A DNA stretch of 64,000 nucleotides from Patescibacteria group bacterium (GTDB lineage Bacteria; Patescibacteriota; Patescibacteriia; JACRDY01). Below the pieces are notes generated by a model. The model searched no databases, was not told where the DNA came from, and saw only the letters and a program-made list of their open reading frames with translations. The position numbers and the translations under genes are program-made. This document shows, one piece after another, positions 3,800 to 55,229 of this stretch (the stretch's first letter is position 1; each line of letters starts with the position of its first letter). The stretch lies in the NCBI GenBank assembly GCA_041653535.1, contig JBAZFH010000002.1:80160-144159 (forward strand). The letters run 5' to 3'.

Positions 3800-4015
3800 A
3801 TTGGTGCATAGATAACGGAAGTTATCTACACATGTATTATACCATATATTTTAAACCACATCAATTTACGCAAGTGTTGTTTTTTGTTTAAGTTTAGATG
3901 AAAAAAAATGTGGATATTTACGTATTTTTTATTTTCTGTTCTTTTTTACTTTAAATTTTAATCAAGATGTTAACAGGATATCCACAAATAATGAAAAAAT
4001 GTGGATAAAGATTGA
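3800..4015. promoter_or_regulatory. cluster of DnaA-box-like 9-mers in a 640-bp AT-rich intergenic region (candidate oriC)
   Basis: tgtggataa (perfect, rc TTATCCACA) at 4003-4011; atatccaca at 3981-3989; tgtggatat at 3909-3916; ttatctaca at 3816-3824; AT-rich tract 4020-4045. Confidence 0.4.
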
Positions 4016-4044
4016 TTTAAAAATTTATTTAATTTTAAATAAAA

Positions 4045-5505
4045 CTATTTTAGACAGCCAGATATACCATAATCGGTCATTTTGAATGCCGAAATACTAA
4101 AAACTTCCCTATATCTAGCCAAAAAATTATTAGCCATGGTTTCTTGGAAGTTAAAAAACATTTGTGGATTAGCAATCTTCTGGCAAAAAGAGGTTAAATT
4201 AATGTTTTTTTCGCCGTTTATTAGCTGTTTAGTGGCGTCGAGCGATGTTGAGAGAATCAAGACGTCATCAATCTGCCCAAAAATAATTTTTAGTTTTGGC
4301 GCCTCTAGGTATTTTAGTTCGTATTTTCCGATTATTTCCGTTTTGGCGTCAAATCTTTTGGGATTAGCTACTAACTCGGTGTATATTGATTTATCCGGTA
4401 GCGACCTTTTTACTTTTTCGGGATACTGGTGGGCGAGGATGTTTTGTAGAATCCTATTAACGGTTTCCAGCGAGTTTTTGTCTTTGTTTTTTATGATAAA
4501 AGTATAAAACAGCTTGTTATCTTCTTTGGTAATAATGATTTGTGTTTGATTGTCCAAATATTTTTCTATTTCCGGAAAAGAAAACCGAAAAGTTTGTTCA
4601 TATGCTTGCCAGGTGCTGAATAGGTCTAAAAATTCTTTTGGTGAAAATTTTTGTAGCTGAACGGAAAAAAGACGGGAAAAATTCAAAAAATTTTCAGCGG
4701 CAATAGAAAAAGTTGTACTTGGCGGCAATTTTTTGGTGATTAGGTTGGCGCCTTTACCAAAATCGATACTTGATTTAATGTTAAAGTTAAAATTTTTATC
4801 TGCCGATATGTAAAAAGCTTTTATGTCGTTGTTTTTGAGGTAGTTTTGTAAAAGGGAAGAAAATATGGGAAAAGAAAGGTTTTTTTGTAATATTTCAGGG
4901 CGTAAAAAAATTTTTAACAAACCACGATCGTAAGCAGATAGCCAGCGATTGTTTTTAACGATCGACTGTTGTCGCTTGATTATGGTCGGGGCAGGAGCAG
5001 AGGTGTCCAGAGGGGCGATCAAATAGCGGCTGCCGGCGAATATTATTGTTTTTTGTCCGGAAATAATATTTTTTATTTCTTTTGGTTTTAGTATTTTGAT
5101 AACAAAATACCAATTATCGTCTTTGTTTAAATAAAGTCCGATTTCCCGGTCAATGTGGTTTTTGACAACAGAGATGTCAAAAGGCGGTAGTCCAGACATT
5201 CTTTCATCAATATCATCAAAAAATATACTGAAAAATTTTTCCGCCGGCGTACCGCTTTGTTCCAGGGGTAAATAGTTAAGATGTATATATATTTGCGCGT
5301 CAGCGGGGACAAATTGCGCTAGGTTGTCACCATTACGATTGCGACTGATAGCTAAAAATAAAATCCCGCTGAATATTATAATGATGGCGAGTAAAAATAA
5401 GATTGTTGCCAGGTGGCGAGGGCGGATGAGTTTGAGTTTTGCGAGTAGACGCTGGATCATGGTTTGATTATAACAAATAACAGGGTAATAGAGTAACGGG
5501 GGCAA
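4045..5505 (-). CDS. membrane-anchored hypothetical protein (N-terminal TM helix; start may be the internal Met at 5460)
   Basis: 486-aa ORF with a single N-terminal hydrophobic helix; no recognised domain. Confidence 0.5.
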   Translation of the reverse strand: MPPLLYYPVICYNQTMIQRLLAKLKLIRPRHLATILFLLAIIIIFSGILFLAISRNRNGDNLAQFVPADAQIYIHLNYLPLEQSGTPAEKFFSIFFDDIDERMSGLPPFDISVVKNHIDREIGLYLNKDDNWYFVIKILKPKEIKNIISGQKTIIFAGSRYLIAPLDTSAPAPTIIKRQQSIVKNNRWLSAYDRGLLKIFLRPEILQKNLSFPIFSSLLQNYLKNNDIKAFYISADKNFNFNIKSSIDFGKGANLITKKLPPSTTFSIAAENFLNFSRLFSVQLQKFSPKEFLDLFSTWQAYEQTFRFSFPEIEKYLDNQTQIIITKEDNKLFYTFIIKNKDKNSLETVNRILQNILAHQYPEKVKRSLPDKSIYTELVANPKRFDAKTEIIGKYELKYLEAPKLKIIFGQIDDVLILSTSLDATKQLINGEKNINLTSFCQKIANPQMFFNFQETMANNFLARYREVFSISAFKMTDYGISGCLK

Positions 5506-9239: not shown

Positions 9240-9306
9240 GGTAGCGGGTAGTGAGTAGCGAGTACAGAGCAGATATTTTTACTCACTACTCGCTACCCAC
9301 TACTCG
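9240..9306 (-). promoter_or_regulatory. pnp 5' leader stem-loop (16-bp imperfect hairpin)
   Basis: ggtagcgggtagtgagtagcgagta ... tactcactactcgctacccactactcg between NYN gene and pnp start. Confidence 0.4.
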
Positions 9307-11680: not shown

Positions 11681-12316
11681 TTAGGAGCGATCAATAAATT
11701 CTATCTCTTTAGCAATTTCGGCTTTCCATTTTTCCGGCGGGACGTCTTTGCACTTGTCTTTCATGTCGCGGATCAGTTGGAAAAATTTGTCTATCTTTTC
11801 GGCGGCAGCCTCTTTTTTTTCCAAACCGAAAAGGTAGTTGAGCGGTGAGTATAGATTGCCGAACTCTTCAAACTGTCTTGGTGCGGCGGTTTTACCTTTT
11901 ACTATGCCGAGGTTGTTCAGAATCCTTAGCATCTTGGGGCAAAGCTGAGTGGAACAAGTCGGCACGCGAAAAGAGTTTAGGGCACAGCCACTGCGGCGCA
12001 ATGCCGGACAAGGACCGTTACCGGGCAGGCGGCGTTTGCCTACTTCTAGCCAGTTGGAATTTTTTTCGGCCAGTTTTTTACTCCAGCCAGGACCGTTCAT
12101 GGCTTTCTGCGCCCGGTCGATAAAATTCCAATGATCCTGTACTTGGTTATCGAGCAGGCAGCAACACATTTCGTCGCGGTCGATAAAGCGTCCTTCTTTT
12201 ACCATTTCCAGACTTTTATCAAAGCAACGTTTGCATAAATCGTCAAAAACGCGAAAAAAACCGATCAGTTCTTTTTCGGCTTGGCGGTAGATGGTGAGTT
12301 TTTGGCGTTCGTTCAT
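11681..12316 (-). CDS. cysteine-rich hypothetical protein
   Basis: 211-aa ORF with multiple Cys clusters (MCCCLL, PCPALRRSGC, PTCSTQLCP). Confidence 0.45.
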   Translation of the reverse strand: MNERQKLTIYRQAEKELIGFFRVFDDLCKRCFDKSLEMVKEGRFIDRDEMCCCLLDNQVQDHWNFIDRAQKAMNGPGWSKKLAEKNSNWLEVGKRRLPGNGPCPALRRSGCALNSFRVPTCSTQLCPKMLRILNNLGIVKGKTAAPRQFEEFGNLYSPLNYLFGLEKKEAAAEKIDKFFQLIRDMKDKCKDVPPEKWKAEIAKEIEFIDRS

Positions 12317-12413
12317 GTTGTTAGGAGGATAGGATTATTATAGAAGCAGTTGGTTAAAAGTCAAAGGGAGGCTTGCGCCATTTGAGTAAGTGTCGTAAAA
12401 TAAACACATTGTT

Positions 12414-28802: not shown

Positions 28803-29227
28803 TTAAGGCGGGAGTTAACCGTGCGACCGTTGTCCTAGACTAACGACTAGGAACAATCGCTCTACCACTCCCAAGGAGAAATGATCACCCCCTCTCATAG
28901 GAACGAGTTGTTTAAAACCTCATTTTTTCGGACGAAGTTTTTCAACAGCCTCATTTCTCCCCCTCCTTTCTTAGGCAGGCTGGGTTAATCGAAATAGCGG
29001 TCCAACAACCAAAAGGCGCCGTTACCTATCAGCTCTTTGGCCGTTCCGCCGATCTCCTGATAAACCGGAAGTGCCAGTTTATCATAGAGATATTGGAGCA
29101 AAAAGACATAAAAAAACGGAGGGCAAATTGCGCATAGAAAAAGTTTTTCTTTGGCATTCATTTTTTTCCCTCCTTTGGTATTTTTCTTGATGTTCTAAAT
29201 ATATTGTAGCGCGTTCGTGGAAAAAAG

Positions 29228-29292
29228 CTAGGTGGTAGCTGGTAGTTGGTAGCTGGGGATAAATAGGAGATTGGTAGGTGGTAATTAGGGGT
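29228..29292. repeat. low-complexity GGTAG/TAGG tract (left arm of inverted repeat flanking a four-helix-bundle gene)
   Basis: gctaggtggtagctggtagttggtagctgggg...ggtaggtggtaattagggg; inverted partner at 29705-29733. Confidence 0.55.
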
Positions 29293-29340
29293 AAAAAGTT
29301 TAGATATTTTTAACATCTTATCCTTTATTCTGATTCTATT

Positions 29341-29703
29341 ATGAGTAATTCAATAAAAGACTTTACGGATTTAGAAACCTGGTGGGAAGCCCAGCGCCTA
29401 CTTTTAGAAATCTATAAAACAACCGAAGACTTTCCTAAAGACGAACTTTTTGGGTTAGTTAGTCAGATTAGAAGAGCTTCTGTTTCTGTTACGTCAAACA
29501 TTGCCGAAGGTTTTTCTAGGTATTCTTTGGCGGAGAAAACAAGATTTTATAATATAGCCTATAGTTCTGTCGTCGAAGTTTATAATCAATTGATTGCAGC
29601 TAAAGACTTGGGTTATATAAAAAAAGAATGCTTCGAACAAAACATTTTGATTATAATCAGCGTCAAAAAATTGATTAACGGTTTGATAAAAAGTCTCTGT
29701 TAG
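29341..29703 (+). CDS. four-helix-bundle protein (TIGR02436; 23S rRNA intervening-sequence protein family)
   Basis: FPKDELFGLVSQIRRASVSVTSNIAEGFSR family signature. Confidence 0.8.
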   Translation: MSNSIKDFTDLETWWEAQRLLLEIYKTTEDFPKDELFGLVSQIRRASVSVTSNIAEGFSRYSLAEKTRFYNIAYSSVVEVYNQLIAAKDLGYIKKECFEQNILIIISVKKLINGLIKSLC

Positions 29704-29704
29704 T

Positions 29705-29733
29705 CACCCCAACTACCAACTACCACCTACCAT
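29705..29733. repeat. right arm (CCAACTACC tract) of the inverted repeat flanking the four-helix-bundle gene
   Basis: ccccaactaccaactaccacctacca = reverse complement of the upstream tract. Confidence 0.55.
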
Positions 29734-29734
29734 T

Positions 29735-30814
29735 TTAATTACTAAACCTAAAATGACAAACATCGCCGTCTTGCATGACATAGTCTTTACCCTCGATCCG
29801 CAGTAGACCTTTTTCTTTGCAACCAGTTTCACCATAGGCGACAAAATCCTGCCAGCGACAAACTTCGACGCGGATAAAACCTTTTTCAAAATCGGTATGG
29901 ATCCTGCCTGCTGCTTGCGGCGCAAAACTGCCACGCTGTACTGTCCAGGCGCGAGTCTCATCTGGACCGGAGGTAAGAAAAGTTATGAGATCCAAAGTTT
30001 CGTAACCTTTTTTAATCAGCTGATCAAGGCCGCTTTCTTCAAGTCCCAATGTCTGTAAATATTCTTTTTTTTCTTCATCAGCAAGTTCAGCTAGTTCGGC
30101 TTCAATTTTTGCTGAAATGGGAAGAATCAAATTTTTATCTATGCCTTTGATTTCCGGCAATGGGTTTTTGACCGCGCCTTCGTCGACGTTTAAAATATAC
30201 ATTACCGGTTTGGCGGTCAGTAGATTGAACTCTTTGATCATGCTTTTTTCATCATCGGTTAAATCAAGAGAATTGACCATTGTACCGGCTCCTAATTTTT
30301 CTTTTATTTTTTTTACCAATTCTAGTAATTTGGTGTCTTCTTTACTGACGCCAGATTTGATCTTCCTTTCCAGATCGCCAACACGCTTGGTGATTGTTTC
30401 CAGATCTTTGAGCGCTAGCTCGGTATTGATCACTTCAATATCAGAAGCAGGATCAACCTTGCCACCAGACTCGATAATAATATTTGGATCAGTAAAATTG
30501 CGAACCACTTGAGCAATAGCATCGACTTCGCGAATATTGGCTAGGAATTGATTACCCAGTCCTTCACCAACCGAAGCGCCTTTGACTAGTCCGGCAATAT
30601 CAACAAATTCAATCACTGTCGGGACGATCTTTGCCGATTTTGCCGCGTCAGATAGTTTTTGCAATCGTTCGTCAGGTACCTCAACAATACCCACGTTTGG
30701 TTCGATAGTACAAAAGGGGTAATTGGCAATATTGATTTGTTTTTTGGTCAGAGCTTTGAAAAGCGTTGATTTACCAACGTTTGGCAGACCGACAATACCG
30801 ATGGATAGAGACAT
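29735..30814 (-). CDS. ychF: ribosome-binding ATPase YchF (Obg-family GTPase)
   Basis: [15 protein letters not shown]-loop; C-terminal TGS domain. Confidence 0.9.
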
Positions 30815-30817
30815 GAA

Positions 30818-30865
30818 AATTAGGAATTAGGAACTGGGAATTAGGAGCTGGGAGCTAGGAACTAT
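30818..30865. repeat. low-complexity TAGG/CTGGGA tract abutting the ychF start codon
   Basis: aattaggaattaggaactgggaattaggagctgggagctaggaact. Confidence 0.5.
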
Positions 30866-38030: not shown

Positions 38031-38179
38031 AAATGAAGTAGCATCTTTTTAATGTTCCAGATTATAAATAATATCGTTTTATACACTTTAGTCAATAGCA
38101 GATGGCAATATTTACATACATTACTGGTTTATCTTGACTAATTCTAGGTAATTATCTATACTGACAACACTTGATTGGT

Positions 38180-38220
38180 CTAACGACTAACCACTAACGA
38201 CTAACCACTAATGACTAACT
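38180..38220. repeat. low-complexity CTAACGACTAACCACTAA tract abutting the rpsT start codon
   Basis: ctaacgactaaccactaacgactaaccactaatgactaact. Confidence 0.5.
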
Positions 38221-39687: not shown

Positions 39688-39690
39688 AAA

Positions 39691-39730
39691 ATTGGTAGTT
39701 GGTAGATGGTAGCTAGGGACTAGATTAGTC
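39691..39730. repeat. low-complexity GGTAG tract abutting the holA start codon
   Basis: aattggtagttggtagatggtagctagggactagattag. Confidence 0.5.
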
Positions 39731-39828: not shown

Positions 39829-42591
39829 CTATGCTATTCTTTCCGTTTCTCCCCAGTTATCACCAACTTCCACATCAACCACTATTGGCACGCGAAGCTT
39901 GTAAACATTTTCCATAGTGTCGCGCACCAGCTTGGCGACTTTTTTTACCAGCACGTCTTTGACTTCAAAAACCAACTCGTCGTGAACCTGTAAAACCATT
40001 TTTACTTCATTTGGCGCAAATTCTTTTTTGATTACCTTATCAATTTCAATCATGGCAAGTTTGATCAGGTCAGCAGCGGTTCCTTGAATCGGTGCGTTGA
40101 TTGCCATACGCTCTGCCGCGGCGCGAATTTGTCCAACGCCGGAATTGATGTCTGGAATATAGCGAACGCGACCAAACAGCGTTTCGACATAGCCTTCTGC
40201 TTTAGCGAGGCGAATAGTCTCTTCTAGATACTCTTTGACTCCGGAAAAGCTTTCAAAATATTTTTCGATAAATTTCCGCGCTTCATCAACAGAAATCTTG
40301 GTTCGCCAGGACAGACCGTAAGCGCCCATGCCGTAGAGAATGCCAAAGTTAACAGCTTTAGCATTGCGGCGCATTTCTTTAGTTACTTTTTCCAGCGGCA
40401 CATCATTAATCGCCGCCGCGGTTGCTTGGTGGATGTCCTTTCCTTCTTCAAAAATTTTCAACATCTTTTTATCTTTAGCCAGTGACGCCACGATGCGCAG
40501 TTCGATTTGCGAGTAATCAGCTTTGAGTATTTTATAGCCTTCTTCTGCAATAAAAGCGCGGCGGATTTTGCTGCCGAGTTCGGTACGGATAGGAATGTTT
40601 TGTAGATTGGGGTCAGATGAAGAAAGGCGACCGGTAGCAGTCACGGTTTGATTGAAACTAGTATGAACGCGGCCGGTTTTTTTGCTGATCAGTTCGGGAA
40701 GAGCGCGGGTATAAGTGGATTGCAATTTGGCTAGCTCACGGTGATCAGAGATATAGTCAATAATTTTGTGGCGACCGCTCAGTTTTTCCAGCTCCGGCGC
40801 GGCGGTAGAAATACCGGTTTTGATTTTCTTTATGCCTTCGCTGGAGATTTTGAGCCGGTCAAAAAGCACTTCTTTTAACTGTAGCGGCGAATCGATATTA
40901 AAGCTGATGCCGGCTATTTTGTAGATTTCTTTGTCGATTTTTTGCCGGTCTTCTTCCAGTTGTTTATCGAGCTTATCGAGAAATTTTTTGTCGATTTTTA
41001 CGCCAGTGGTTTCCATTTTGGCTAAAATTGGTATCAACGGCATTTCGATTTTTTCCATCAGACCAAGAATGTTTTTTTTCTCTACTTCGGAATACAATTT
41101 TTCAAAAAGTTGAAAAGTGTAGTCGGCATCTTCCGAGCAATAGTCGGCCACGCGGTTAACATCGACTTGTTCCAGGGTGATTTGTCCTTTGCCCTTGGGA
41201 CCAATCAGCGCAGTGATGGGAGTCATCTGATAACCGATTTCGGTAAAGGCTAAAGTATCCAGGTCGTGAGCGCGACTACCGGGATTTAGCAGGTACGAAG
41301 CAATCATAGTATCAAAATAAACCCCGCCAACTTCGAAGCCGGCTTGTTTTAAAATCTCGATGTCATATTTTAGGTTATGACCAATCTTTTTCACCTTGTT
41401 GTCTTCAAGTACGGCGCGCAGCTCGCGGCTCGCAGCTCGCGGCTGCTCGTTAAAAACTAGATAATAAGCCTCGCCTGATTTCCAGCAAAAGCCGATGCCT
41501 AAGAGTTTTGCGGTTATCGTGTCTAGACTAGTAGTTTCGGTATCAATAGCGATAGTATCTTGTTTTTTTAGTTCTTTGATAAAGCTTTCGTAGCTTTTTT
41601 CATCGGCAACGAGGTGATAGCCTTTGCGGATTTTGAAATCGGCACTAGGAGCTGGGAGCTGGGAGCTAGGAGCTCCAAATAAATCGCCTTGTTTGGTTTC
41701 CGCCACTGCTTTGCCGCTGATGTCTGGTAGGCGAGATAAAAGAGATTTAAATCCAAGATGCTGAAAAAGATCAAAAACTTTTTTCTGGTCAGGCGGGACA
41801 ACTTTGTTCTCGTTGAGCCTAAAATCTATCGGCGCGTCGAGTACGATCGTTGCCAGATGCTTTGACATCTTGGCATCTTCCTCGTGTTCGACTAGTAAAG
41901 CGCGATAACGATCTTTGATTTTTTTATCGCCTTTTTTAGCTGCTGCCAAAACTTTTTCCAGTGTGCCAAATTCCCGCAGCAATTCAACAGCGGTTTTTTC
42001 GCCGATACCTTTGACCCCGGGAATATTGTCCGAAGCATCGCCGCGAAGCCCTTTGTAGTCAATCATTTGGTATGGTTTCAGACCGTAGCGTTCTTTTACC
42101 GCAGCAGCGTCATAAATCACAGTATCGTTAACTCCGCGTTTGAGAGTAAAAACTTCCGTGTCGTCGTCGATTAGCTGCAGTGTGTCCATATCGCCGGTGA
42201 CGATAATGCTTTTGACCTTACCTTCGGTTTTATGACAAATGGTGCCGATCAGGTCGTCAGCTTCAAAACCATCAAGTTCATAAAGCGGAATATTGAAAGC
42301 TTTGGCTAAATTTTTGACGATTGGGATCTGGGCGTAGAGCTCGTCTGGTTGTTTGGTGCGCGTTGCTTTGTACTCTTTATATTCTTCGTGACGAAAAGTC
42401 TTTTTGGCTTTATCTAAGGTTAAGGCAATATAGTCTGGTTTTAGCTCTTTGTAGATTTTAAATAATATCAAAGCAAAGCCATAAACGGCGTTTACTAGTT
42501 GGCCGTCTTTGCTGGTGAGTGGTGGCAAAGCGTGAAATGCCCGGTGGATCAGGGCGTTACCATCGATGACAATTAGTTTTTCTTGTTTCAT
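39829..42591 (-). CDS. polA: DNA polymerase I
   Basis: 5'-3' exonuclease, 3'-5' exonuclease and polymerase domains (KLKSTYTDAL-like region, RRxAKAVNFGILYG, QVHDELVFE). Confidence 0.97.
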   Translation of the reverse strand: MKQEKLIVIDGNALIHRAFHALPPLTSKDGQLVNAVYGFALILFKIYKELKPDYIALTLDKAKKTFRHEEYKEYKATRTKQPDELYAQIPIVKNLAKAFNIPLYELDGFEADDLIGTICHKTEGKVKSIIVTGDMDTLQLIDDDTEVFTLKRGVNDTVIYDAAAVKERYGLKPYQMIDYKGLRGDASDNIPGVKGIGEKTAVELLREFGTLEKVLAAAKKGDKKIKDRYRALLVEHEEDAKMSKHLATIVLDAPIDFRLNENKVVPPDQKKVFDLFQHLGFKSLLSRLPDISGKAVAETKQGDLFGAPSSQLPAPSADFKIRKGYHLVADEKSYESFIKELKKQDTIAIDTETTSLDTITAKLLGIGFCWKSGEAYYLVFNEQPRAASRELRAVLEDNKVKKIGHNLKYDIEILKQAGFEVGGVYFDTMIASYLLNPGSRAHDLDTLAFTEIGYQMTPITALIGPKGKGQITLEQVDVNRVADYCSEDADYTFQLFEKLYSEVEKKNILGLMEKIEMPLIPILAKMETTGVKIDKKFLDKLDKQLEEDRQKIDKEIYKIAGISFNIDSPLQLKEVLFDRLKISSEGIKKIKTGISTAAPELEKLSGRHKIIDYISDHRELAKLQSTYTRALPELISKKTGRVHTSFNQTVTATGRLSSSDPNLQNIPIRTELGSKIRRAFIAEEGYKILKADYSQIELRIVASLAKDKKMLKIFEEGKDIHQATAAAINDVPLEKVTKEMRRNAKAVNFGILYGMGAYGLSWRTKISVDEARKFIEKYFESFSGVKEYLEETIRLAKAEGYVETLFGRVRYIPDINSGVGQIRAAAERMAINAPIQGTAADLIKLAMIEIDKVIKKEFAPNEVKMVLQVHDELVFEVKDVLVKKVAKLVRDTMENVYKLRVPIVVDVEVGDNWGETERIA

Positions 42592-42597
42592 AAATAT

Positions 42598-42636
42598 GAT
42601 GGTAGGAGGCTAGGATAATAGGAGGCTAGGATTAGT
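42598..42636. repeat. low-complexity GGTAGGAGGCTAGG tract abutting the polA start codon
   Basis: ggtaggaggctaggataataggaggctaggattag. Confidence 0.5.
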
Positions 42637-42712
42637 TGTTGGAACGACACGCCCTCTGGGCGTGTTATCGTGCACGATGCTTTAAACGTAAGGCATGAAA
42701 TATGTAACATGA

Positions 42713-50157: not shown

Positions 50158-51641
<1,484 letters not shown>

Positions 51642-54095: not shown

Positions 54096-54099
54096 AAAT

Positions 54100-54152
54100 A
54101 GGATGATAAGAGGTTAGGAGGGTAGGATGTTAGGATGTTAGGAGGGTAGGTG
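54100..54152. repeat. low-complexity TAGGATG/GGTAGG tract (left arm; also abuts the trmD start)
   Basis: ggatgataagaggttaggagggtaggatgttaggatgttaggagggtaggtg; inverted partner at 54604-54650. Confidence 0.55.
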
Positions 54153-54245
54153 AAATAGTTTAAAAATATTTAATAATTTTTTTTAGATCTATTTAATCTA
54201 CCATTAGCTATATTCTAGACGCTTTAACTAATAACTGCAAATTCT

Positions 54246-54605
54246 ATGACAACCAAATCGTTTCGTGATTTAATCGTCTGGCAAAAAAGCTTCGAGCTAA
54301 CTAAAGAAATCTATCAATTAACCAAATTATTCCCAAAAGACGAGCTATTTGGCTTAACCTCTCAGATTAAGAGAGCGACCGTTTCTGTCCCCTCCAACAT
54401 CGCTGAAGGGTGCGAAAGAGGCTATAAGCAAGAATTGCTTAGGTTTTTATTGATTGCCCTCGGTTCTGCCGGCGAATTAACAACTCAATTATTGATTGCT
54501 AGAGATTTGAAAATGGCAGAAAAAAAATATTTTATAAAATCCGAAGGGCTACTATTAGAAACGACTAAATTATTACATTGTTTTATCCGCAAGCTTAAAT
54601 CTTAA
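54246..54605 (+). CDS. four-helix-bundle protein (TIGR02436; 23S rRNA IVS protein family), second copy
   Basis: FPKDELFGLTSQIKRATVSVPSNIAEGCER signature. Confidence 0.8.
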   Translation: MTTKSFRDLIVWQKSFELTKEIYQLTKLFPKDELFGLTSQIKRATVSVPSNIAEGCERGYKQELLRFLLIALGSAGELTTQLLIARDLKMAEKKYFIKSEGLLLETTKLLHCFIRKLKS

Positions 54606-54650
54606 CATCCTATCCTTATATCCTCCTAACATCCTATCCTCCTATCTTCC
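54604..54650. repeat. right arm (CATCCTA tract) of the inverted repeat flanking the four-helix-bundle gene
   Basis: aacatcctatccttatatcctcctaacatcctatcctcctatcttcc. Confidence 0.55.
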
Positions 54651-54711
54651 TGTAAAAAACAAAAACCGCCGATTTTTCAACCGACGGTTTTAGTATCTAA
54701 AAGTTCAAAAT

Positions 54712-55074: not shown

Positions 55075-55229
55075 CTCGGTTAGTTACCCAAAAGGGACTT
55101 AACCGTAATTAGCTATCATTATAGCAGATAGATCCATTTTGTCAATAATTTAAGGTAAAAATGTTTAAATTTACTTGATTTTTTTCTTTAAATATGCTAA
55201 AATTTAAAAAGATAAAATAAATTATTTTT

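Follow-up and report, generated by a model that had tools for sequence, protein, structure and literature searches.

A stretch of 64,000 nt from a Patescibacteria genome (contig JBAZFH010000002.1, positions 80,160 to 144,159; hereafter the window) carries two genes of the PF05635/TIGR02436 four-helix-bundle family, each enclosed by a pair of complementary, tandemly repeated arms. We consider it probable, at roughly 0.6, that each gene is the cargo of a hairpin cassette of the ribosomal RNA (rRNA) intervening sequence (IVS) type that lies outside rRNA, between protein-coding genes. The cassette consists of a G-rich arm of 3.5-6.5 tandem 7- or 8-nt units, an optional AT-rich spacer, the PF05635 open reading frame (ORF) and a complementary C-rich arm that starts from the stop codon. 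Because about half to two thirds of 82 sampled relatives show this design, the classic rRNA IVS looks like one case of a much wider element lodged between ordinary genes.

The two cassette genes were identified by profile matches and are as follows.

29341-29703, plus strand: gene 1, PF05635/TIGR02436 four-helix-bundle protein (S23p/IVP, Avd-like), 120 amino acids
54246-54605, plus strand: gene 2, PF05635/TIGR02436, 119 amino acids, 45% identical to gene 1

Both had been called TIGR02436-type in a preliminary description of the window made from the sequence alone, and the profile scores lie far above the cut-offs (PF05635, 115.4 and 124.7 bits against 33.8, with profile positions 1-106 covered in both; TIGR02436, 106 and 120 bits against a curated threshold of 24). 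The only other Pfam or NCBIfam match was a weak one to Avd, the accessory protein of diversity-generating retroelements (DGRs) (18 bits for bAvd in Pfam, where the cut-off is 40, and 19 bits for the NCBIfam Avd equivalog, where it is 80). To our knowledge, DGR Avd is the only member of the S23p or "four helix bundle" family with a known function. The nearest solved structure, by sequence match only, was the Xanthomonas S23p-type protein 2GSC (E 9e-20), which has been described as a homopentamer (PMC4990558). An exact-sequence look-up of gene 1 gave no record. The family as a whole comprises 22,321 clusters at 50% identity (E at most 0.001), or 7,886 at E at most 1e-10.

The elements that make up and adjoin the cassettes are listed below.

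29222-29258: 5' arm of cassette 1, about five units of 7 nt (TAGGTGG, TAGCTGG, TAGTTGG, TAGCTGG, GG), G-rich, "TAG-type"
29272-29294: extra partial copy of the cassette 1 5' arm (TGGTAGGTGGTAATTAGGGGT), also complementary to 29718-29732
29295-29340, plus strand: AT-rich spacer of cassette 1, from arm to ATG, presumed to hold a promoter
29705-29737: 3' arm of cassette 1 (CCCCAACTACCAACTACCACCTACCA), "CTA-type", from 1 nt past the gene 1 stop codon up to the ychF stop codon (29735-29737, minus strand)
54098-54154: 5' arm of cassette 2, 6.5 units of 8 nt (TAGGAKGN), 2 nt from the trmD start codon (54095, minus strand)
54155-54245, plus strand: AT-rich spacer of cassette 2, from arm to the gene 2 ATG
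54600-54654: 3' arm of cassette 2 (CATCCTAT/CCTCCTAA units), overlapping the gene 2 stop codon
54662-54691, minus strand: terminator-like hairpin past the KhpA gene, just outside cassette 2

The arms are built of tandem 7-nt GGTAGNK units in cassette 1 and 8-nt TAGGAKGN units in cassette 2; the 5' arms lie 82-102 nt upstream of the ATG, with the AT-rich spacer between, and the 3' arms begin at the stop codon. Complementarity between the two arms is 89-92% over 26-28 nt in cassette 1 and 80% over 46 nt in cassette 2. In predicted RNA folds the arm-arm stem closes a loop of about 450 nt and is present in both the minimum free energy (MFE) and the centroid structure of each cassette; fold z-scores were -3.5 (cassette 1) and -4.3 (cassette 2), and 0 of 100 shuffled sequences were as stable. 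Cassette 1 lies between ychF and a 58-amino-acid ORF, and cassette 2 between trmD and KhpA, the gene identities being confirmed by Pfam. Searches with Rfam found one 16S gene and 12 tRNAs in the window and no 23S rRNA gene, and matched the arms to no known RNA family. The bracketing of both genes by inverted tracts and the stem-plus-ORF design of an rRNA IVS outside any rRNA, both put forward in the preliminary description, were thus borne out. The 16S gene (50159-51641) stands alone, unlinked to any 23S within the window.

Strict tandem tracts numbered nine in the window, seven with a period of 7 and two with a period of 8, and none was found there at periods of 5, 6, 9, 10 or 11. The two unit families gave 17 and 13 pattern matches, where 0.75 and 0.11 were expected. 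Among 331 control ORFs of 90-170 amino acids from DNA of the candidate phyla radiation (CPR), six (1.8%) had comparable flanking inverted repeats, and two of these six were the cassette genes 1 and 2 themselves. Independent assemblies of the same strain were 99.985-100% identical, and so offered no copy-number variation.

Recurrence of the design was measured in 80 loci of the relatives closest to the query, drawn from one-genome-per-species contigs and covering Patescibacteria, Bacteroidota, Acidobacteriota, Clostridia, Planctomycetota, Elusimicrobiota, Gammaproteobacteria, SAR324 and others. The flanks of the ORF of each of 82 genes (260 nt on the upstream side, 130 nt on the downstream side) were scored for local complementarity to each other, and an arm score of at least 30 was taken as the threshold. 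This was reached by 41 of the 82 genes, against three when direct repeats were scored and one in the reverse control, and the median arm score was 29.5 against 16 in controls and shuffles. After removal of orthologues, which left 74 cassettes, pairing reached 30 or above in 49% of cis and 0.7% of trans combinations, and in 49 of the 74 the cis score exceeded the 95th percentile of the trans scores; each 5' arm therefore fits its own 3' arm and does not just share a common motif. None of 20 further family loci checked had an rRNA context.

The 267 kb of family loci yielded 127 tracts with a lag of 7 and 32 with a lag of 8, while lags of 5, 6, 9 and 10 gave 0, 1, 9 and 1, and 114 of the 159 tracts at lags 7 and 8 lay within 260 nt of a family gene. 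The unit consensus across loci is (T)AG followed by 4-5 variable, C-poor bases; the 5' arm holds more G than C in 37 of 41 cassettes (p 1e-7), and arms have a median length of 30 nt. From one non-orthologous locus to another the arm sequences always differ. Very similar units (AGTGGTT, AGTGGGT, AGTGAGT, AGTAGTR) were seen in the unrelated genomes of Thiohalocapsa, Ruminococcus, Peregrinibacteria, Clostridia, Cyclobacteriaceae and Nomurabacteria (L051, L069, L032, L075, L081 and L072), whose family proteins are 36-50% identical and whose flanks are unrelated, which suggests that certain unit sequences may be preferred. Stop codons in all three frames were enriched in the arms (5' arm, 38% against 11% in shuffles; 3' arm, 26% against 1.4%). 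A role as three-frame stop insulator was rejected as the sole cause of the 7- and 8-nt periods, since all three frames are stopped in just 26-38% of arms.

The position of the cassettes relative to their neighbours was also regular. Of 83 family genes, 64 sit between co-directional genes on the same strand, with a median of about 50 nt between them and either neighbour, a spacer that the arms therefore fill. Tracts within 12 nt past a neighbour's stop codon were TAG-type in 22 cases and CTA-type in two; those within 12 nt before a neighbour's start codon were CTA-type in 12 cases and TAG-type in none. The usual span of the arms is from the stop codon of the upstream gene to the start codon or ribosome-binding site of the downstream gene. 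At locus L142 the first repeat unit contains the dnaB stop codon, and the 5' arm stops 3 nt short of the ATG of the cassette gene and the 3' arm 5 nt short of the recR ATG; in Clostridia the Shine-Dalgarno motif and then the ATG of the downstream gene come after the 3' arm. A family gene stands directly upstream of recR in two CPR loci (L142, 12259-12710; L028, 1430-1875), one of them labelled Saccharibacteria. At L028 a second, divergent gene that by eye resembles a four-helix bundle (2527-2892) follows recR, with arms of reversed polarity. In an uncultured Clostridia metagenome-assembled genome (L062, 1200-2300) the cassette lies inside an ORF that, by eye from its translation, resembles a methyltransferase of the PglX/BREX (bacteriophage exclusion) type; the host frame is open across the whole cassette of about 420 nt, and the family gene is in another frame.

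Both inheritance and gain or loss of whole cassettes could be followed. All pairs of family proteins at least 64% identical were orthologous, with conserved flanks, and one cassette site was common to eight Flavobacterium species, which indicates that cassettes can be inherited stably. The Flavobacterium arms belong to one unit family, AGGTTCAR, except at locus L039, whose two arms have both changed to AGGYRCTR units and pair best with each other, scoring 57 against 15-31 in trans; the two arms of a cassette thus co-diverge. A relative (L001, 86% protein identity) keeps the order trmD, cassette 2, KhpA, and in it KhpA is separated from the gene that follows by an additional cassette with TATGGTTT-type arms. 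The corresponding site in the window is a 155-bp interval (55075-55229) with no arm remnant. The earlier proposal of an IVS-like element is in part upheld by this cassette, which is whole in L001 and absent from the window. No target-site duplications were detected: among 39 cassettes, the longest common substring at the outer ends averaged 3.72 nt, against 3.71 nt in mismatched controls.

Besides the cassettes, the window contains tracts without an enclosed gene.

9240-9306: ORF-less hairpin of the GGTAG/AGTAG heptamer family with an 11-nt loop (z -7.1), 7 nt past the stop codon of an NYN-domain gene and about 100 nt upstream of pnp
12318-12340: short solo tract (TTAGGAGGATAGGATT) of the cassette 2 family, 5 nt from the start of the minus-strand gene 11681-12316
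30817-30864: solo heptamer tract (TTAGGAA/CTGGGAG units), 2 nt from the ychF ATG, with no partner arm in the window
38176-38220: solo heptamer tract (six CTAACSA units) adjoining the rpsT ATG
39689-39722: solo tract of the cassette 1 family, CTA-type on the holA sense strand, ending 1-4 nt from the holA ATG
41411-41446, minus strand: in-frame heptamer tract inside polA, amino acids 382-394
41637-41679, minus strand: in-frame heptamer tract inside polA, in a linker, amino acids 305-319, similar to the ychF solo tract
42595-42640: solo tract of the cassette 2 family, ending about 3-8 nt from the polA ATG

Single arms had been described against the starts of ychF, rpsT, holA, polA and trmD; all were found, at distances of 1-8 nt, and all are C-rich, G-poor and CTA-type on the sense strand of their gene. 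Their attribution to the repeat families of the cassettes stood for holA (cassette 1, together with the hairpin at 9240) and polA (cassette 2, together with the tract at 12318); the rpsT tract has no family partner in the window, and the ychF tract resembles one of the polA coding tracts. In total the GGTAGNK and the TAGGAKGN family each occur at four sites in the 64 kb. The hairpin at 9240-9306, previously placed in the pnp leader, is real as a hairpin and sits instead behind the NYN-domain gene. Likewise, the single tract reported to encode a polA linker does so, and polA holds two coding tracts. In-frame heptamer tracts occur at the same two variable positions of polA in three relatives, with different units in each (41411-41446 and 41637-41679 in the window; 4398-4436 and 4616-4694 in L165; 3964-3999 in L166), and one of the L165 tracts is an in-frame local hairpin (GGTTCGC / GCGAACA). 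A Shine-Dalgarno-like motif was present in just about 16 of 66 window ORFs. The notion that the tracts serve as special Shine-Dalgarno substitutes is weakened, as about three quarters of the ORFs are without the motif anyway. The 3' end of the 16S rRNA is canonical (CCTCCTTTCT) although so few ORFs have such a motif.

Stray tracts were compared with the arms of the cassette at the same locus and matched them in 25% of cases, against 1.5% for arms of other loci (p 0.004), in agreement with the earlier claim that solo arms share the repeat families of the cassettes. At L142, for example, a hairpin at the RmuC stop codon, a solo tract at the rplU stop codon and the cassette arms are all of TAAGAGK units. 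At L004 an ORF-less heptamer hairpin (3940-4118), of TAGTAC units, the family of that locus's cassette arms, adjoins the 5' end of a tRNA gene. Orthologues of polA, holA and rpsT were drawn from 80 RmuC-centred metagenome loci and from holA-based look-ups; synteny across the 80 loci was mostly not conserved and yielded few orthologues, and the holA-based look-ups served better. The polA and holA orthologues in the relatives examined had no leader tract, one polA having a normal GGAGGA motif instead, so the polA and holA leader tracts of the window represent lineage-specific gains, as opposed to a leader motif kept by descent. A leader tract at rpsT was present in one of three relatives (L166; absent from L165 and L148). 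Given these differences among orthologues, the tracts turn over at gene boundaries and are not conserved, gene-specific leader motifs; a leader motif of particular core genes, or one recognised by a translation factor as suggested earlier, is not supported. In L166, which is fairly distant (holA 58% identical; L165 is closer), a CTAACCA/CTAGCCA tract (11747-11781) adjoins the rpsT ATG. Upstream of holA, L165 carries a different ORF-less hairpin, and L166 (9900-10000) a long non-periodic inverted repeat of the gtcattgcgagg...cctcgcaatgac type, which is another kind of intergenic hairpin.

On the reading of the genes as cargo of IVS-type cassettes, a transcript that crosses the cassette on either strand would have its arms zip into a stem of 25-45 bp, so that the cassette is looped out and its flanks are juxtaposed. 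The stem would be a substrate for RNase III, by extrapolation from the Coxiella rRNA IVS, and through such processing the insertion would be tolerated by the host RNA, while the leader left to the downstream gene would be short and G-poor. By homology with Avd, the protein, presumably a pentamer, probably binds the repeated arms. The hairpins and solo arms would then be decay products or footprints of cassettes.

Several observations weigh against this reading. About half of the homologous loci score below 30, the divergent family member at L028 has arms of reversed polarity, and arm positions are Watson-Crick paired at just 84%. Mismatches between arms show no preference for wobble pairs (40 of G·U type and 46 of A·C type; 32 and 33 in the subset lying sense in operons), so that selection at the RNA level gains no support from them; this is weak evidence, as the arms also tolerate transversion mismatches. 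The two cassettes of the window run antisense to the genes beside them, a rare arrangement seen in just three of the 83 family genes, and a terminator-like hairpin parts KhpA from cassette 2. Cassettes with a spacer (both in the window and those of Flavobacterium) may be transcribed from inside the 5' arm, in which case the mRNA of the gene itself would have only one arm; a promoter scan of both window cassettes gave no signal above chance. Cleavage by RNase III is carried over from rRNA IVSs, and the RNase III signature motif was not found within the 64-kb window. Finally, 873 kb of related CPR genomes contained about 40 heptamer tracts and one family gene, so tracts may not depend on cassettes; several of these tracts are ORF-less hairpins, with the same stop/start polarity as cassette arms.

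Some of these points are met as well by a system acting on DNA, in the manner of repetitive extragenic palindromic (REP) doublets forming hairpins and their REP-associated tyrosine transposases (REPIN-RAYT). The arms would be terminal inverted repeats or DNA hairpins, with RNA pairing a by-product, and the PF05635 pentamer would bind and propagate a cognate repeat family scattered as inverted doublets and singlets. The lack of wobble bias in the arm mismatches, the possible internal promoters in the spacers and the excess of tracts over cassettes keep it a serious rival. Consistent with it, the unit family of each window cassette recurs at two to three other sites in the 64 kb, as also happens at L142, L020, L004 and L007; the cassette is stable at one orthologous site in Flavobacterium, just as RAYT genes are stably inherited at one site; and the co-divergence of arms is compatible with gene conversion between them. 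The protein, however, belongs to a family of small four-helix bundles for which no nuclease or recombinase activity is known, its sole characterised relative, Avd, binds RNA, and target-site duplications are lacking. The ORF is co-oriented with host operons in 64 cases and opposed in three, which points to dependence on host transcription. Moreover, just 25% of nearby stray tracts match the resident arms, and units differ at almost all loci, so that protein and repeat would have had to co-evolve at every one. On balance a mechanism of this kind is rather unlikely.

It is improbable that the tracts are autonomous simple repeats born of slippage, like the short tandemly repeated repetitive (STRR) sequences of cyanobacteria. 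On this account solo tracts never held a cassette, tracts act as leaders that are G-poor and unstructured, as insulators with stops in three frames or as processing hairpins, and family genes just tend to lie among them. The surplus of tracts over cassettes in related genomes fits it, as do the enrichment of three-frame stops in arms, the rpsT leader tract kept in two lineages with no cassette nearby, and the polA coding tracts, whose two positions are common to three relatives although their units differ. It leaves unexplained why 114 of the 159 tracts in family loci crowd within 260 nt of a family gene, why arms are specifically complementary to their own partner, and why a match to a stray tract is 16 times commoner for the resident arms than for arms from other loci. 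In addition, cassette and arms are gained or lost as one block, the empty site having no tract, and tracts are absent from the polA and holA leaders of all relatives examined and from the rpsT leader of two out of three.

An invertible switch, with the arms as recombination sites that flip the gene or a promoter, would suit inverted repeats of 25-45 bp around some 450-550 bp with an AT-rich spacer as a possible place for a promoter. This was rejected as very improbable, since orientation is fixed in all orthologous sets (window against L001; the eight Flavobacterium species) and no recombinase gene is adjacent; the 64:3 bias towards sense orientation and the unrelated arm sequences of different loci likewise speak against it. 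Chance complementarity of low-complexity sequence, whose arms can pair in several registers and so inflate alignment scores, is refuted by the direct and reverse scoring, shuffles, trans pairing, control ORFs and other repeat periods, and its probability is negligible.

If most family members are cargo of IVS-type cassettes, the rRNA IVS would be one landing site of a general element, the family would gain a testable ligand in its own flanking repeats, and the intergenic heptamer hairpins and G-poor leaders beside core genes would have an origin. The structural signature offers a simple annotation aid for repeat-armed elements. A broader and more tentative proposal, which we think somewhat doubtful, is that PF05635 genes and their 7- or 8-nt arms form a widespread, long-lived partnership of the REPIN-RAYT type built on an Avd-like pentamer, each with its own (T)AG-N4-5 family, that seeds gene boundaries with hairpins and solo arms; the five protomers would be served by roughly 4-5 units per arm. 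Were this true, rRNA IVSs, intercistronic cassettes and possibly the STRR hairpins of cyanobacteria would be one system. The stem would then bring the stop codon of the upstream gene next to the start codon of the downstream one, so that the two genes could stay translationally coupled despite the insertion, in a shunt-like geometry akin to that of the cauliflower mosaic virus leader. ORF-bearing rRNA IVSs are already known. Repeat-armed hairpins around non-rRNA family members across phyla, inside operons and with dispersed hairpins and solo arms, seem to be undescribed; a literature search in a searchable library, which is no proof of being unpublished, gave no description of the design outside the Coxiella IVS.

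Among known systems, miniature inverted-repeat transposable elements and transposons with terminal inverted repeats share inverted ends around a small gene, ORF-less derivatives and presence/absence polymorphism; they differ in that the cassettes have no target-site duplication and no transposase and that cassette ends vary from copy to copy. REPIN-RAYT systems consist of a single Y1 (HUH) transposase gene and REP repeats dispersed as hairpin doublets and singlets. Common to both are one gene flanked by inverted repeat copies, a repeat family of its own dispersed as doublets and singlets, and long vertical inheritance at a fixed site, whereas the cassettes have an Avd-like four-helix bundle in place of the transposase, tandem 7- or 8-nt arrays in place of a fixed palindrome of about 25 nt, and few dispersed copies. 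Cyanobacterial STRRs are heptanucleotide repeats, and heptamer-repeat hairpins occur in the tRNA-Leu intron and in RNase P RNA. There, as here, tandem 7-nt units build or lengthen hairpins in structured RNAs and intergenic DNA, with rapid change in copy number; the phylum and the unit sequences are different, and we know of no report that links STRRs to a PF05635 gene. Avd belongs to a homologous four-helix-bundle family, to whose profiles the cassette proteins match weakly; it forms a positively charged pentameric barrel in which all five protomers contact an 11-bp RNA stem-loop (bioRxiv 10.1101/2023.10.23.563531). No reverse transcriptase gene adjoins either cassette (the neighbours being ychF, the 58-amino-acid ORF, trmD and KhpA); template and variable repeats were not searched for.

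The closest counterpart is the 23S rRNA IVS. ORF-bearing IVSs occur in the 23S rRNA of Leptospira, Coxiella burnetii, Xanthomonas and Brucella, at helix 25 or 45. In Coxiella a 28-bp terminal stem encloses the S23p ORF, three or four tandem GACAGAT heptamers, variable in number between strains, directly precede the S23p ATG, and RNase III cuts the IVS at the first repeat (PMC4990558). The window cassettes have the same protein family, an inverted-repeat stem of about 25-30 bp around the ORF, tandem repeats in the 5' arm (7-nt in cassette 1, as in Coxiella, and 8-nt in cassette 2) and a purine- and G-rich 5' arm. They differ from these IVSs in lying between protein-coding genes, antisense to their neighbours, with a spacer of about 90 nt, and in that their repeat families also supply solo arms and ORF-less hairpins.

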